The notes under the pieces were generated by a model that saw only the letters and a list, made by a program, of their open reading frames with translations, was not told the origin of the DNA and ran no database searches. Shown in pieces: positions 1 to 63,318 of a DNA stretch of 64,000 nucleotides. The position numbers and the translations under genes were made by a program. The stretch lies in contig CM000435.1 of the NCBI GenBank assembly GCA_000165345.1, positions 96,001-160,000 on the forward strand. The letters run 5' to 3'. Each line of letters starts with the position of its first letter. Positions within the stretch are counted from its first letter, which is position 1.

Positions 1-499
1 ATTTCAATGAGTACTACATTTTTTCTTTCATAACTTAAAGTAAGTTGGAGTAATTTGGCACATCCAAAGTCTTAAATAAAGCTATGAAATACACCATCAA
101 AATTACATATTTAATTTTTACTTTAATGATAAAAAAAAATAATAATAAATAATAGTGTGAAATTTCTCTCAAAACTAAAAGACTACCAATAATAATCCAA
201 ATTTTAGTCATTAGTTTAAAAAAAAATCTTTCACCATTTCGCTAGTTTGATTTTATTGGGCTTGATTTTCATGCTTAATTTCTATTTAAATCATTATCAT
301 ATTCGTTAATCATCTCTTGTTGTTTTATATTTAAATATATTCGAATTCAAAGTTTAATATAGATGGAACAGATTAATTGATTCTTCATTAAATTCTGCAT
401 GCATTCTTACATGCAAAATGTAATTGAATTAATAGGTCAAGTTTTGGCGCCAAAACATTTTTTTATTCTTTTTTTCTTTAATAAAAAAAAAAAATAAAA

Positions 500-1717
500 T
501 TATTTATTTAATAGTCTCATATACTCAAAAGAAATATCTGACATATTTCTAATGGGAACAAAAAGGTCAGAATTCAAAAAAGAGGTTTTCTTTTGAAATT
601 TCTTTTCTTCTAAAAGTCTGACATTTTCTGGAATATTGAATTGAGTTGATTGAACAATTACATGGTTTAATGAATCAAAATATAATCTACAAGTTTTCTT
701 TAGCTCATCTGATAATAATAAAGTTGAAATATGTGTATAACCAAAAGTTGTTGGTGAAAGTTTTTTTCCCCAATATCTATTGTAGAATCTTTTTAATAAA
801 CTTAATAATATGCCATTTGGATACAAAATTAAAATTTCATTAAGTTCGTTTTTTAGGTCTATTAGTTTATTATGTAATGATTTTTTTTCTAATCTATTAA
901 TTAATGCTGAGCAGTTTGAATCATCATTAGGAGTTTCATTACTTTCAATTTGATCAACATCCATTGATAGTGCAGCAGCAGCAATCTTTACACATGTGCA
1001 TCTCGGCTTTAAAACATTATTTTCATATTGTAGAATTCCTCCATTAATAGCAAGTTGAACTAGATGGGACAATTCCCCCAATGATAGATCTTCTAATTGA
1101 GAGATTTTTGCCTTATGTATTTCCATAGCTACTCCATATCTTCCGCCTTTAAATTGATATCTAAGTAAATCAGGCTCAATTTGAGAATTTGAATAATTTG
1201 AATTTAGAGGTATTAATAAAAAATCTGATTCACTTTCTTTTTGATTTATAATTAATTCATGACCTTTGGAATCTATTGAGTAATTATTTGAATTATTTAT
1301 TGTATTTGAACCATTAATATTACTTTCTCCTTTAACACAGACTAAGTTATTAATATATTGTAAAAATCCACTCCATATTTCATGGGAATAAGGATTATTC
1401 GGATTTTTTGGATCAATCCAATGGTTATCTGGAACATTTAAATTTCTAAAATAAATCTCTCCATTACTAAATAATAGGAACTCTTCTTCATTTTCTGTTA
1501 AATCTTTTACTAACATTTGCAAGTTATAATTTGCACCTAAATCTACACGTTCTTTTAATCTTCTAATAAGTTCTTGAAGATGTGGTCTAGTTCTATCTAT
1601 ATAAAGTGATTTAAGTGCATCCTTAATTAAATCCAATCTTCTTTCTTTCCAGAATTCCGGTCCAGGTCTCATTACTACCGTCCCTGTTCCTGTTCCTGTT
1701 CTTGTACCTATACCCAT
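500..1717 (-). CDS. hypothetical protein, possibly OST-HTH/LOTUS-domain containing; N-terminal Gly/Thr-rich low-complexity stretch
   Basis: Uninterrupted 405-codon ORF in AT-rich DNA. The C-terminal segment ILLSLLKRFYNRYWGKKLSPTTFGYTHISTLL fits the LOTUS/OST-HTH pattern (L..L...Y...FG..L....GY..L). The family call is weak. Confidence 0.45.
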   Translation of the reverse strand: MGIGTRTGTGTGTVVMRPGPEFWKERRLDLIKDALKSLYIDRTRPHLQELIRRLKERVDLGANYNLQMLVKDLTENEEEFLLFSNGEIYFRNLNVPDNHWIDPKNPNNPYSHEIWSGFLQYINNLVCVKGESNINGSNTINNSNNYSIDSKGHELIINQKESESDFLLIPLNSNYSNSQIEPDLLRYQFKGGRYGVAMEIHKAKISQLEDLSLGELSHLVQLAINGGILQYENNVLKPRCTCVKIAAAALSMDVDQIESNETPNDDSNCSALINRLEKKSLHNKLIDLKNELNEILILYPNGILLSLLKRFYNRYWGKKLSPTTFGYTHISTLLLSDELKKTCRLYFDSLNHVIVQSTQFNIPENVRLLEEKKFQKKTSFLNSDLFVPIRNMSDISFEYMRLLNK

Positions 1718-60632: not shown

Positions 60633-62972
60633 ATGTTAAGACTCCATCCTAACTTTAAAAATCTTCTGAAAACTGTATATTTCATTCCTTTGGATGGAGG
60701 TTGGATATCGGTTTTAATATCTGTTATTGGGAGTCTTTTATTGTCTCCTGTTTTAACTATTGGTATTCTAACAACACATATATTCAAGTTATTTGATATC
60801 ATTTGGATCAAATTAAGTTATTTATGGTGTGGGGAGCGTCATCTACTCCTAGAACCTTTAAATGATGTTGACTATTTAATGTGGAGATCATCATTCTATG
60901 GTCAACCTCTGATTATGTGCTTCTTTGTAACTGATAGAATTCCTGCAACCCAAATGGAGAAACATTTGATACAAAGAATAGAAAATAAAGATGCTTTTCA
61001 AGAATCTACTGGAAATACTAAATCTAATTCAAACAAGCTTGGATCCAAATATACAAGCTTACCAAATCATCTTAGAGAAAATAAAAGATTCTTTTGTAAA
61101 GTAGAAAGTTCATTAGGAAGATTATGGTTCAAATATGCTGGAAATGAATATGATACTTCTAGAAATATTATCAAATTGACTCCAAAACATGCTAGAATGA
61201 TTCTAAGAATGCCAGAGCTTGTTATTGATAGAGATTCTTCTAAGACTTTATCTGAGAGAATTTTAGACATTCAAAATGATAAGAATGAAATAAAATATGA
61301 TGAATCTAGCTTGACTGAAGAAGAAACTAAGAATTTCTATAACTTATTATTTAATTGTGAAAATTATCAACTTTCTCCTAAAAGGCCTTGTTGGAGAATT
61401 ATATTATTGGATGACGTTATTTGGAATGGTGTTCAAAGTTCAATTTTAATAGGACAATTTCATCATGTTATTGGAGATGGATCAACTTTAACAGAATTTG
61501 TAAAAAAAACTGTTTTAAATAGTTTAGAGACTAATAACTTAAAACAAGGAAATATGAAAGGAGTAACAAGATCTGCAAAATTCTGGCATCAGTGGGTAAG
61601 TGGATTACTTTGGGCTGCTATAGCAGGTCCAATTACTCTACTTAAGGCTGCATTACAAGCAAGACCAGAAAGATCATGGGATACTCCATCAAAAAAAAGA
61701 TCTAAAAGATCAAATAAGATTAGTTCAGCAGGTCCTGTTAACTTATCTTTAAAAGAAGTAAATCTAGTCAAGGATAAATTAAATGAAGATCTTAATCTTA
61801 GAGAGAGGTCAATTAGCTTAAGTAGTCTTCAACAAGACTCTATTAGTACTGCTTCTACAAGTAACGAAAATAATCCACCACAAACTGAAAATAAGAATAA
61901 ATCAGAATTAATTAGCAGAAAAATCCGTAAAAATTCATCAAATCCAGTGAATGCAATTGAAAAAACTAAGAAAAAGGAGTCTCATCATTTTTCGAAAAGG
62001 ATCACATTTAATGATATAATCCTTTCTTGTATTGCAAGTGGATATTCCAAATATGTCAATCATTATATTTCCATTCAAGGAGATTCAGATGATACTTCAA
62101 ATAGTTCTACAAGTGCTCACTCTCCAGTGTCTTTAACATCTAAGAACTCTCCTCCAGTAACAATGACTCCAAATCCAGGATTAATGAAAGAGGTATCAAT
62201 GTTAACAACAACAACAACTCCTTCTTCAAGAAGATTTAATGAATATGATAAAGAAAATGCTACTCATTCTACATCTCCTTTTCATTTTGACGACAAATCA
62301 CCATATTCTAGCATATTAAAGTATGATTCAATTACAAATTCTCAAGATTTAGATGTAGAATTAGATTTCCATTCAAATTCACAATTAAAAACAAAAATAA
62401 ATGGTTTATATTCAGGAAGTTATTCTTCTTACAAGGAAAATGATTTATCATCACTTTGTCATTCAAATCTTAATGTGGTTGTTACCACTAACAACAGAGT
62501 TAAACCACCAACTAAATTGGATAATGCATTTTCCATAATAGTACTACCAATACCAACTTGTCCTTTGGCATCACCTTCAGAAAGATTAAGATGTGTATTT
62601 GAATCCCTACAGGAATATAGAAAAACTTCTCTTCCAATCATATTTATCAGATATATCCAATATACTTTATGCCTATCTCCATATGCTCTTCTTTGTTTAT
62701 GGCATCCTCATTCAAAATCTTGTTCAATGTATTATAGTTCAGTTCCTGGTCCAAAAAACTGTTCTTTTATGAATAAGAAAATTAGAGATATGACTTTTGC
62801 TCTTCCACTTACTGATCATATTGGTCTTGGAGTATCGGTATTTTCTTTTGATGATAAAGTCTCTATTTCATGTACATTCGATGAAGAAATAATACTCGAC
62901 CCTTATCTCCTTTTAAGATTTATAAAGCTTTCATTTGAGGAGCTCAAGGCTGGGATTCTAGCAAAGGTCTAG
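60633..62972 (+). CDS. WS/DGAT-type O-acyltransferase-like protein (HHxxxDG motif), N-terminal TM segment, Ser/Thr-rich central insert
   Basis: N-terminal hydrophobic segment. Catalytic-type motif ILIGQFHHVIGDGSTL (HHxxxDG) of the wax-ester synthase/DGAT (condensation-like) superfamily. C-terminal region ...VSVFSFDDKVSISCTFDEEI. Confidence 0.55.
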   Translation: MLRLHPNFKNLLKTVYFIPLDGGWISVLISVIGSLLLSPVLTIGILTTHIFKLFDIIWIKLSYLWCGERHLLLEPLNDVDYLMWRSSFYGQPLIMCFFVTDRIPATQMEKHLIQRIENKDAFQESTGNTKSNSNKLGSKYTSLPNHLRENKRFFCKVESSLGRLWFKYAGNEYDTSRNIIKLTPKHARMILRMPELVIDRDSSKTLSERILDIQNDKNEIKYDESSLTEEETKNFYNLLFNCENYQLSPKRPCWRIILLDDVIWNGVQSSILIGQFHHVIGDGSTLTEFVKKTVLNSLETNNLKQGNMKGVTRSAKFWHQWVSGLLWAAIAGPITLLKAALQARPERSWDTPSKKRSKRSNKISSAGPVNLSLKEVNLVKDKLNEDLNLRERSISLSSLQQDSISTASTSNENNPPQTENKNKSELISRKIRKNSSNPVNAIEKTKKKESHHFSKRITFNDIILSCIASGYSKYVNHYISIQGDSDDTSNSSTSAHSPVSLTSKNSPPVTMTPNPGLMKEVSMLTTTTTPSSRRFNEYDKENATHSTSPFHFDDKSPYSSILKYDSITNSQDLDVELDFHSNSQLKTKINGLYSGSYSSYKENDLSSLCHSNLNVVVTTNNRVKPPTKLDNAFSIIVLPIPTCPLASPSERLRCVFESLQEYRKTSLPIIFIRYIQYTLCLSPYALLCLWHPHSKSCSMYYSSVPGPKNCSFMNKKIRDMTFALPLTDHIGLGVSVFSFDDKVSISCTFDEEIILDPYLLLRFIKLSFEELKAGILAKV

Positions 62973-63318
62973 GCTCTTTAAAGCAGGTATATTTTCTTAA
63001 GCAGAATTTAGCTGAGTTTGCAATTTAGAAAGTGAGAGGATATATAGTATTTGAGTTTTTATGTTGATAGGGAAAGATAAATACCTAACAACTAAAGATC
63101 TATTATTAATGCTTTAATACTTTATTTGATAAATTAGTCATCTTTTTTTAGATATTTTAATTTTAATATTAAAAAAAAAAAAATCATGTATGCCGGTATG
63201 CATTTTTAAAATGCTATACCGGAGTTTTGGCGGGAAATGATGAATTATTTTTTTCCCCAGGTAAAGGAAAATATTCGAGAATTAATTAATTCAAAATTTT
63301 CAAAAAAAGAATCCTAAA

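Follow-up and report, generated by a model that had tools for sequence, protein, structure and literature searches.

The stretch of DNA considered here, 64,000 nucleotides of GenBank assembly GCA_000165345.1 (contig CM000435.1, positions 96,001 to 160,000 of the forward strand; hereafter the window), belongs to chromosome 7 of Cryptosporidium parvum and holds the region of the malate dehydrogenase (MDH, cgd7_470) and lactate dehydrogenase (LDH, cgd7_480) genes. About 29 genes lie on its two strands with short spacers between them, and four classes of short GC-rich word recur in those spacers: an asymmetric word around GGCGGG, a palindrome around GGCGCC, words containing GCATGC, and words containing ACCGGT or CCGGTA. 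The gene map was refined from orthologous annotation together with tblastn and tblastx searches, by which four genes were gained (Table 1). Four of the window's proteins (MDH, LDH, a CDK-related kinase and cyclin A) match C. parvum proteins exactly, which bears out the assignment to Cryptosporidium made in an initial annotation from the letters alone. No tRNA genes and no Rfam families were found in the window, and no RNA gene overlaps the motifs.

The overall GC content of the window is 29%, with 24% in the spacers (76% AT, roughly the 80% first estimated) and 31% in the open reading frames (ORFs). Expected counts for the words were taken from an order-2 Markov model trained separately on each compartment, spacers and coding sequence. 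The spacers hold six copies of GGCGGGAAA against 0.06 expected, ten each of TTGGCGCC and TGCATGCA against 0.12 each, 14 of CCGGTA against 1.9 and eight of TACCGGT against 0.5; the corresponding counts in coding sequence are 0, 4, 2, 1 and 0. The palindrome TACCGGTA occurs three times in spacers (9964, 23260 and 51217; 0.09 expected) and never in coding sequence. Expectations from order-1 and order-2 models are both exceeded 10- to 100-fold, and 50-100-fold in spacers for the strongest words. An unbiased scan of all 6-8-mers placed the same words at the top, beside A/T runs; the commonest intergenic words among the 492 strand-collapsed 6-mers with four of six positions G or C are CGCCAA, GCATGC and CCGGTA, while among the 36 all-GC 6-mers GGCGCC ranks first and CCCGCC second. 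Within GC-matched groups of 36-640 words, the motif words rank 1st to 3rd. Since the ORFs are richer in GC than the spacers, composition alone predicts that GC-rich words should gather in genes; we observed the opposite, all four classes being over-represented in spacers and depleted in genes.

The words are a general feature of the upstream regions. At least one of the four classes is present in 21 of the 22 promoter-containing spacers (tallied from a per-gene table), and four of the six convergent spacers contain none. An E2F-type core lies within the gene's own 5' spacer for 23 of 29 genes in the refined map, at a median distance of about 210 nt from the ATG; divergent and tandem spacers carry 1.5-1.8 such sites per kb, and genes 0.13 per kb. 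The initial annotation had described recurrent words concentrated in nearly every upstream spacer, and on both counts it was right: the recurrence is real, standing far above Markov expectation, and the density within the coding sequence of the window is clearly not equal to that of the spacers after GC correction. Its six positions for GGCGGGAAA are exact (21563, 49943, 54671, 60235 and 63229 on the forward strand, 42511 on the reverse), and those for ACCGGT/CCGGTA fall within 1-6 nt. GGCGCC-type sites were recovered at 444-453, 26254-26269 (double), 29448, 34806, 38985, 57354 and 58978/58991, the remaining one lying at 37419 and not at 37427, and the GCATGC positions are good to about 10 nt apart from one placed at 49961, which is at 49989. 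The list had overlooked GGCGCC at 44986, 46625 and 55544/55550, GCATGC at 32867, 36387, 42589, 46642 and 51432, and CCGGTA at 30836, 36364, 44585 and 63217.

Conservation and clustering of the words

Syntenic loci of C. canis, C. felis, C. ubiquitum, C. bovis, C. xiaoi and C. muris, across which gene order is fully conserved, cover the window from about 10 to 64 kb. For each word of a window spacer we scored whether the word is also present in the orthologous spacer, using as control composition-shuffled words in the same spacers (control values in brackets). GCGGGAA, GGCGCC, TGCATG and CCGGTA were kept in 7/7 (0.3), 8/8 (0.9), 14/14 (2.6) and 5/8 (0.7) cases, respectively, in C. canis; in 5/6 (0.0), 8/8 (0.6), 8/10 (1.3) and 4/6 (0.3) in C. 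ubiquitum; in 0/5 (0.0), 5/6 (0.2), 8/13 (2.4) and 2/7 (0.4) in C. bovis/xiaoi; and in 1/5 (0.0), 3/5 (0.0), 3/11 (0.8) and 0/6 (0.1) in C. muris. The palindrome ACCGGT was kept in none: 0/4 (0.3), 0/2 (0.1), 0/4 (0.3) and 0/3 (0.1) in the same order of species. We also aligned C. parvum with C. canis, plus C. ubiquitum where its locus was available, and found 85% of positions in E2F-type words, 70% in CCGGTA and 58% in TGCATG identical across the aligned species, versus 42% in the spacers overall. Fully conserved in place were 8/10 GGCGGG, 7/10 GGCGCC and 9/33 TGCATG sites, versus 5.5% of random windows. An excess of these words is also seen in non-coding DNA of the other species, at GC contents that range over 23-44%. 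The asymmetric form GGCGGGAA is absent from the orthologous spacers of C. bovis/xiaoi (GCGGGAA 0 versus 0.5 expected) and GGCGCC is found genus-wide, with enrichment in every species, which suggests, from the sequences compared, a lineage shift in the preferred form of the E2F site in C. bovis/xiaoi.

Sites of different classes also lie close to one another. Heterotypic pairs separated by no more than 50 bp number 28, against 9.5 expected when placement is randomised within the same spacers, and none of 5000 randomisations reached the observed number; pairs of an E2F-type and an AP2_1 (GCATGC-type) site number 12 against 4.1, and pairs of an E2F-type site and CCGGTA number 5 against 1.2. Given that heterotypic sites are closer than under random placement, the words form composite modules, of which 42511-42595, 63193-63237, 58950-58996 and 39214-39229 are examples. 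The E2F, AP2_1 and less well supported CCGGTA(T)/ATACCGG words cluster within about 50-100 bp, and most modules lie 50-500 nt upstream of start codons; in the arrangement that we propose they would work in either orientation and often serve both genes of a divergent pair.

Two further kinds of word were seen. ACACGT/TTACGTGT, which the initial annotation did not list, occurs 12 times in 11 spacers against 1.2 expected (examples at 10018, 12971, 15350, 23367, 34340, 54721, 57161 and 60245). We considered it as a fifth motif and set it aside for its poor conservation: it is in place only at 34340 and 57161, both within larger conserved blocks; the strict in-place test finds full conservation at 2/9 sites, which is not significant, with 52% of positions identical; nor is it over-represented in the non-coding DNA of C. 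ubiquitum, C. bovis/xiaoi or C. muris. As a cis-element ACACGT is unproven. CACACA/CCACAC words, which resemble AP2_2, are commoner in spacers than in genes.

Factor classes and competing explanations

From these observations, we conclude that the recurring GC-rich words are very probably short promoter elements, namely E2F/DP sites, the AP2_1 site of the ApiAP2 proteins and the less well supported CCGGTA(T), combined in composite modules, as the initial annotation's reading of them as spacer promoter words had it. What is observed is that the words are enriched and clustered, sit in promoter position, show no orientation bias and are conserved across species. The proteins that would bind, and the association with open chromatin, come from the literature; the use of each individual site and the role of modules within genes and convergent spacers we infer from the pattern.

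The canonical eukaryotic E2F/DP consensus is TTTSSCGC, with asymmetric and palindromic forms. The flanks of the GGCGGG and GGCGCC sites in the window yield TTTTGGCGGGAAA and TTTTGGCGCCAAAA, and the consensus core is matched by (T)TTTGGCGGGAAA at 42514, 49943 and 63229 and by TTTTGGCGCCAAAA at 446, 29450 and 46625; TTT(T)GGCGGGAAA and TT(T)GGCGCCAA(A) are the asymmetric and the palindromic form of this site. Relative to the downstream gene, four of the asymmetric sites are sense and three antisense, a mixed orientation that argues for an element acting at the level of DNA and independently of orientation. Likeness to the E2F/DP site of animals and plants extends to the core, the T-rich flank, the palindromic variant TTTGGCGCCAAA, orientation independence and a location near start sites; the difference is that the C. 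parvum sites precede about 80% of the genes in the window and not cell-cycle genes only.

The E2F-like classification of GGCGGGAAA and TGGCGCCA in the initial annotation agrees with the published motifs. TTTGGCGGGAA and TTGGCGCCAA correspond to motifs 4 and 3 of Oberstaller et al. 2013 (PMC3734150), E2F-like motifs with the consensus TTTGGCGGGAAV (motif 4) and DTTGSCGCCH (motif 3) that form the most abundant class in C. parvum. A passage in PMC12246861 credits their first sighting to Bankier et al. 2003, and the literature ties them to glycolysis and DNA-replication genes. The words, the organism, the upstream location and the occurrence before most genes are identical here, and MDH, LDH and CAF1B lie in this window; what is added to the Oberstaller motifs is site-level conservation in six other Cryptosporidium species and conserved copies inside coding sequence. 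Mullapudi et al. 2007 had analysed the 891-bp region upstream of LDH (cgd7_480), equal to window positions 22786-23675, and found a motif with a GGCG core. E2F is the dominant motif in sporozoite peaks from the assay for transposase-accessible chromatin with sequencing (ATAC-seq; Xiao et al.). A 2025 review lists E2F genes cgd1_1560 and cgd6_1430 and DP genes cgd7_3650 and cgd8_1850, and gives AP2_1, AP2_2, G-box, E2F, GAGA and CAAT-box as the known motif families; an RB-family partner of Cryptosporidium E2F is not identified in the sources consulted, this review included. Cryptosporidium differs from the other apicomplexans studied in having retained E2F and DP genes.

The octamer TGCATGCA is the AP2_1 site, recognised by several ApiAP2 domains: motif 1 of Oberstaller et al. 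2013 (PMC3734150) is BGCATGCAH, AP2_1-like, and TGCATGCA/TGCAT is bound in protein-binding microarrays by the ApiAP2 domains cgd2_3490, cgd1_3520, cgd8_3230 and cgd5_4250. Twelve exact octamers occur in the window, ten of them in spacers, and its non-coding excess recurs in C. ubiquitum, C. canis, C. felis and C. bovis/xiaoi. The window sites do not differ in kind from AP2_1, the site of those ApiAP2 domains (orthologous to Plasmodium AP2-Sp/PF14_0633), with which they share the palindromic octamer, intergenic enrichment and co-occurrence with E2F; AP2_1 is found upstream of long non-coding RNAs (lncRNAs) as well. This identification departs from the initial annotation, which had called GCATGC G-box-like, a label we give practically no credence. 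GCATGC and the G-box have in common that both are GC-containing promoter words and nothing more, and the plant G-box CACGTG is like neither. The Cryptosporidium/Plasmodium G-box is G.GGGG / DTGTGGGG and is bound by cgd8_810, whereas the catalogues enter GCATGC(A) as AP2_1, a site for cgd2_3490 and further ApiAP2 domains. The pattern G[T/G/A]GGGG / DTGTGGGG, likewise a short GC-rich promoter word, has no match in GCATGC, GGCGGGAAA, TGGCGCCA or ACCGGT, so none of the four noted words belongs to it. True G-box words are few in the window: separate TGTGGGG copies lie at 42565-42571 and 37192, the former matching Oberstaller motif 2 (DTGTGGGG), conserved in C. ubiquitum, C. canis and C. felis, and sharing a module with E2F, CCGGTA and AP2_1 words.

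We stress that several observations weigh against this interpretation. Cell-cycle and replication genes are present in the window (CAF1B, two cyclins and the CDK-related kinase), yet E2F-type sites precede nearly all genes, and words so widespread cannot alone explain stage-specific expression. The TGCATGCA octamer is fully conserved at its aligned position in just 1/10 cases, though C. canis spacers keep TGCATG in every instance, which implies either turnover or a looser requirement for TGCATG only. No AP2 motifs were reported in sporozoite open chromatin (Xiao et al.), so that the action of AP2_1 sites may be limited to other stages. For CCGGTA, no excess was seen in C. felis, C. bovis/xiaoi or C. 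muris, and its strict in-place test is modest, with 4/12 sites fully conserved (P about 0.04). Finally, "promoter" is defined here by position relative to ATGs and not to transcription start sites, and occupancy of these particular sites by E2F/DP or ApiAP2 proteins is presumed.

That the words instead reflect composition or chance, as islands of GC-rich sequence on an AT-rich background devoid of sequence-specific function, draws some support from the heterogeneous composition of the spacers, in which 12-22% of GC-rich windows are fully conserved versus 5.5% of random ones. Such an origin is exceedingly improbable in the face of counts that surpass Markov expectation 10- to 100-fold, ranks of 1st to 3rd in GC-matched groups of 36-640 words, composition-shuffled controls that are almost never found in orthologous spacers, and enrichment of the same words in species whose spacers have 23-44% GC. 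Recurrence of words, some of them palindromic, is also what fragments of a dispersed repeat or mobile-element family would produce, and this too has next to no likelihood: a repeat search of the window returned nothing beyond tandem repeats in coding sequence, AT-rich microsatellites and the paralogy of LDH and MDH. With no repeat family carrying the motif words, and with the flanks of individual sites unrelated, we rejected it.

Action at the RNA level, as elements of untranslated regions (UTRs) governing stability, translation or processing, we regard as very unlikely, if a little less so. Some sites are very near coding sequence (only 4 nt separate that at 49988 from a stop codon), others are in possible 5' or 3' UTRs, and the shortness of C. 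parvum spacers makes UTRs and promoters overlap. Most sites are, however, palindromic or occur in both orientations relative to the gene, sites are common to divergent gene pairs, and the words match double-stranded-DNA binding specificities and ATAC-seq peaks, all of which favours promoter elements.

Three of the four word classes are already published for C. parvum, partly at this very locus (the LDH promoter, 2007), and the core finding thus carries little weight in itself. CCGGTA(T) may be the only new class, with the modules embedded in coding sequence a further modest lead. Phylogenetic footprinting at site level, with seven Cryptosporidium species, tells apart the individual sites that are under constraint; CCGGTA(T), as a candidate fifth element, could help to explain co-regulation beyond the near-ubiquitous E2F; and conserved words in ORFs and convergent spacers bear on how a 9-Mb genome with spacers of about 500 bp fits in promoters, antisense transcripts and polycistrons.

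The CCGGTA(T) word

Aligned instances of the fourth word give (A)T(A/G)CCGGTAT; the full palindrome (A)TACCGGTA(T) is present at three sites, and all others carry a half-site. The initial annotation had taken the palindrome ACCGGT as the unit. We dropped it in favour of CCGGTA(T), which is moderately conserved in the parvum-ubiquitum-canis lineage where ACCGGT is not: in comparison with related species, the half-site of TACCGGTA is kept in 5/8 (C. canis) and 4/6 (C. ubiquitum) cases and the full ACCGGT core in 0/4 and 0/2. As judged from sequence, the conserved fourth unit would be CCGGTA(T)/ATACCGG. Local alignments place the half-site amid diverged flanks at 23260, 20358 and 51217 (C. canis), at 30836 (C. 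ubiquitum and C. xiaoi) and at 42527 (C. ubiquitum, with a near-match in C. canis), and the inverted pair at 63193/63217, followed by TTTTGGCGGGAA, is in place in both C. ubiquitum and C. canis, again with diverged flanks. Outside C. parvum, over-representation was seen only in C. ubiquitum (CCGGTA 7 versus 1.3) and C. canis (ATACCGG 6 versus 1.1).

The initial annotation's remark that ACCGGT is less discussed is in keeping with the literature. The strings CCGGT and ACCGG were not found in the text of the Cryptosporidium and ApiAP2 papers searched, Bankier et al. 2003 and the supplements of Oberstaller 2014 lying outside that search; CCGGTA words were not found in the Oberstaller 2013 supplement; the ApiAP2 motif table of PMC6631176 has no match to CCGGTA; and a literature search for CCGGTA/TACCGG in Cryptosporidium returned primers and oomycete papers only. 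Among the latter, the Phytophthora infestans promoter motif M94 is given as TACCGGTA (Roy et al. 2013, PMC3597505), and streme-5 of Plasmopara halstedii, ATACCGGTAT, as equal to M94 (PMC10031896); the passages concerned name no binding protein for either. As described there, this is the same palindrome in a promoter-region motif as at the three window sites that read (A)TACCGGTA(T), a likeness of the word alone, oomycetes being stramenopiles and Cryptosporidium an alveolate. Unlike the oomycete motif in those passages, the unit conserved in Cryptosporidium is a half-site, CCGGTA(T), which frequently stands alone or forms an inverted pair with a gap between the copies, and usually lies beside an E2F site. 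One may speculate that its binding factor is an AP2-domain, Myb or C2H2 protein.

Taken together, we lean towards CCGGTA(T) being a real cis-element. That it is no independent element, being over-abundant by chance in this single 64-kb window or retained only as a neighbour of E2F and AP2_1 sites, we consider rather improbable, yet a reading to be taken seriously. Its sites are few (12), the alignment test is marginal and enrichment is missing from C. felis, C. bovis/xiaoi and C. muris, as noted above; published de novo searches with MEME, AlignACE and FIRE did not report it; and it is often within 50 bp of an E2F site, whose conservation it could partly borrow. On the other side, its excess in spacers with a single copy in coding sequence stands at about 2e-5 after correction for 1731 words, it ranks 3rd of 492 GC-matched 6-mers, its over-representation in C. 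ubiquitum and C. canis is independent, it stays in place within diverged flanks at the sites listed above, and the same palindrome is predicted as a promoter motif in the oomycete passages.

Modules outside 5' spacers

The initial annotation's emphasis on upstream spacers proved too narrow: conserved clusters also occur in two convergent spacers and inside two ORFs. One of the latter lies in the CAF1B coding sequence, in a variable linker between WD40 blades, with the same words at the same offsets within the coding sequence in C. canis and C. ubiquitum and not in C. xiaoi. When the codons are aligned, neighbouring codons vary, and the stretches of identical nucleotides coincide exactly with the motif words, third positions included; as these words are the sole such islands in the linker, its codons appear to be constrained by DNA motifs. 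The other is in the low-complexity 3' coding end of a 614-aa ORF, where C. ubiquitum and C. canis keep both words amid diverging coding sequence; this module may be a promoter lying within the gene upstream. In a related observation, C. felis CAF1B is annotated as 429 aa with its start at locus coordinate 10001, and by tblastn the C. parvum protein matches from 9296 on (locus 9296-11290), 705 nt before that start, at about the position of the internal motif module; the short C. felis protein is probably an artefact of annotation or assembly.

In Li et al. 2021, antisense lncRNAs, most of which begin at the 3' ends of genes, are reported to have E2F and AP2_1 motifs in the 100 bp preceding them. 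By analogy, the clusters in the convergent spacers 19837-20450 and 49850-49998 are candidate antisense or lncRNA promoters, and modules in convergent spacers or ORFs would most likely drive antisense/lncRNA transcription or that of neighbouring genes; antisense lncRNA transcription would be the most economical explanation of sites outside 5' spacers. A published long intergenic non-coding RNA, Cp_lnc_130 (CPATCC_0032045), lies between CPATCC_0032040 and CPATCC_0032050, and the 1179-bp spacer between a 402-aa ORF and CAF1B would be its position if the gene-order count makes those two its flanking genes. Cp_lnc_130 and Cp_lnc_155 both fall in the CPATCC_00320xx range, the mapping to the window being partial and by gene-order count.

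Combining these two leads, the joint reading that CCGGTA(T)/ATACCGG(TAT) is a genuine, uncatalogued cis-element of the parvum-ubiquitum-canis lineage and that promoter modules are kept by selection inside coding sequence is one we advance tentatively, its prospects falling a little short of even. If it is true, an element identical to the oomycete TACCGGTA would point to an unassigned transcription factor possibly common to protists of the SAR group (stramenopiles, alveolates and Rhizaria), and codon choice, even amino-acid sequence, would be constrained by transcription-factor sites in the CAF1B linker and at the 3' end of the 614-aa ORF.

Table 1. Genes and motif sites of the window, with their setting and their conservation in other Cryptosporidium species
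Feature	Position	Strand	Setting	Conservation
MDH, cgd7_470	20451-21401	-	exact C. parvum protein match
LDH, cgd7_480	21820-22785	-	exact C. parvum protein match
Prefoldin gene	29815-30383	+	intron-containing; added by refinement
Kinase gene	42942-44787	-	three exons; added by refinement
LAMTOR3-like gene	47133-~47870	+	added by refinement
LSm gene	63319-63753	+	added by refinement
TTGGCGCCAA, palindromic E2F-type	444-453	.	window edge; TGCATGCA at 396-403
TACCGGTA palindrome	9964-9971	.	centre of divergent SNF2(-)/CDK(+) spacer; degenerate E2F word TACCGCCAAACACGTGT at ~10008-10025
TGCATGCATGCA, overlapping AP2_1 sites	15331-15342	.	~620 nt upstream of P-type ATPase ATG 15961(+)
GCATGC, TACCGGT, ACGTGT, TGCATGCA cluster	20299-20408	.	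614-bp convergent spacer (19837-20450), ATPase(+)/MDH(-)	ATACCGG, CATGC in C. canis; AP2_1 words in C. canis, C. felis, C. bovis
GGCGGGAAA, asymmetric E2F-type	21563-21571	+	165 nt upstream of MDH ATG 21401(-)	MDH-LDH spacer: GCGGGAA/GGCGGG in C. canis, C. felis, C. muris
TACCGGTA between TTGCATG and ATGCAA	23260-23267	.	LDH(-)/214-aa ORF(+) divergent spacer, the 891-bp region of Mullapudi 2007	LDH upstream spacer: TTGCATGTAAATGCCGGTAT in C. canis; CCGGTA/ACCGGT and TGCATG in C. felis
TTGGCGCCGGCGCCAA, double palindromic E2F-type	26254-26269	.	212-bp divergent spacer RTR1(-)/RPB9(+)	GGCGCC in C. canis, C. bovis, C. muris; TTGGCGC half-site in C. felis
TTGGCGCCAA	29448-29457	.	divergent spacer cyclophilin-WD40(-)/prefoldin(+)	similar offset in C. 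canis, C. felis, C. bovis
Two TGCATGCA	30472-30541	.	540-600 nt upstream of PIG-U ATG 31075; nearer ATG: TACCGG 30836, GGCGC ~30860	PFD-PIGU spacer: TGCATG pairs in C. canis, C. felis
TGCATGCA and GGCGCC	34770-34811	.	1179-bp spacer (33942-35120), 402-aa ORF to CAF1B	ACGTGTGCATGC at 34338-34351 likewise conserved
GGCGGGAA, TGCATGCA, TACCGG, CATGCA, GGCGGGAA (gene orientation)	36302-36410	-	inside CAF1B coding sequence, codons ~236-272	see text
GGCGCCAATACCGGT, E2F-type abutting CCGGTA-type	37419-37433	.	307-315 nt upstream of CAF1B ATG 37115(-)	GGCGCCAA in C. ubiquitum, C. canis, C. felis; CCGG part partly kept
TGGCGCCAA	38985-38993	.	159 nt upstream of TTC4-like ATG 38830(-); second module TGCATGCATTTCCCGC at 39214-39229
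TTTCCCGCCAAAAATGCCGGTA on + strand, E2F-type beside CCGGTA	42511-42532	-	70-85 nt upstream of 1055-aa ORF ATG 42445(-)	block nearly identical in C. ubiquitum; E2F part in C. canis, C. felis, C. xiaoi, C. muris
TGTGGGG, TACATGTA, TGCATGCA	42565-42595	.	one block of 1055-aa ORF promoter	C. ubiquitum, C. canis, C. felis
TTGGCGCC	44984-44991	.	350-bp divergent spacer kinase(-)/614-aa ORF(+); GGCGGG at 44972
TTGGCGCCAAA...GCATGCA	46623-46648	+	3' coding end of 614-aa ORF (45138-46982), 485-510 nt upstream of LAMTOR3-like ATG 47133	see text
GGCGGGAAA and TGCATGCA	49943-49995	+	149-bp convergent spacer (49850-49998), CRAL/TRIO(+)/methyltransferase(-)	TTTTTTGGCGGGAA, TTGCATGCA in C. ubiquitum; GGCGGGAA in C. 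canis
TACCGGTA	51217-51224	.	274 nt upstream of methyltransferase ATG 50946(-); CCCGCC 51187, TGCATG 51232-51237	CCCGGTATAT in C. canis, lost in C. ubiquitum
GGCGGGAAA	54671-54679	+	139 nt upstream of PRP16 helicase ATG 54535(-)
GGCGCCAA	57354-57361	.	distal end of ~560-nt conserved non-coding block, cyclin-like gene ATG 56836(-)
TGCATGCA, GGCGCCAA, GGCGCC	58950-58996	.	divergent spacer cyclin A(-)/Sec10-like(+)
GGCGGGAAA	60235-60243	+	395 nt upstream of DGAT-like ATG 60633(+)	GGCGGG in C. ubiquitum, C. canis
CCGGTAT-N17-ATACCGG-AGTTTT-GGCGGGAAA	63193-63237	+	87-123 nt upstream of LSm ATG 63319	all three words in place in C. ubiquitum, C. canis; flanks diverge

Three further features of the locus were observed. 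Upstream of the cyclin-like gene (ATG 56836 on the reverse strand), a non-coding block of about 560 nt (56837-57400) is almost unchanged between C. parvum, C. ubiquitum and C. canis, conserved far above other spacers, with indels that are not multiples of three and a purine-rich sense strand; it ends at the conserved E2F site at 57354 and probably represents either a long 5' UTR under conservation or a non-coding RNA. The cluster of sequences at 90% identity to C. parvum LDH includes records labelled Escherichia coli 1-110-08 ("malate dehydrogenase", on contigs of 0.5-1.2 kb), which are most likely Cryptosporidium contamination of stool-derived E. coli assemblies. The 2042-aa ORF of the SNF2-family SNF2/RING helicase contains long in-frame tandem repeats, with 15-nt and 18-nt periods, at 8390-9004 and 5196-5513.

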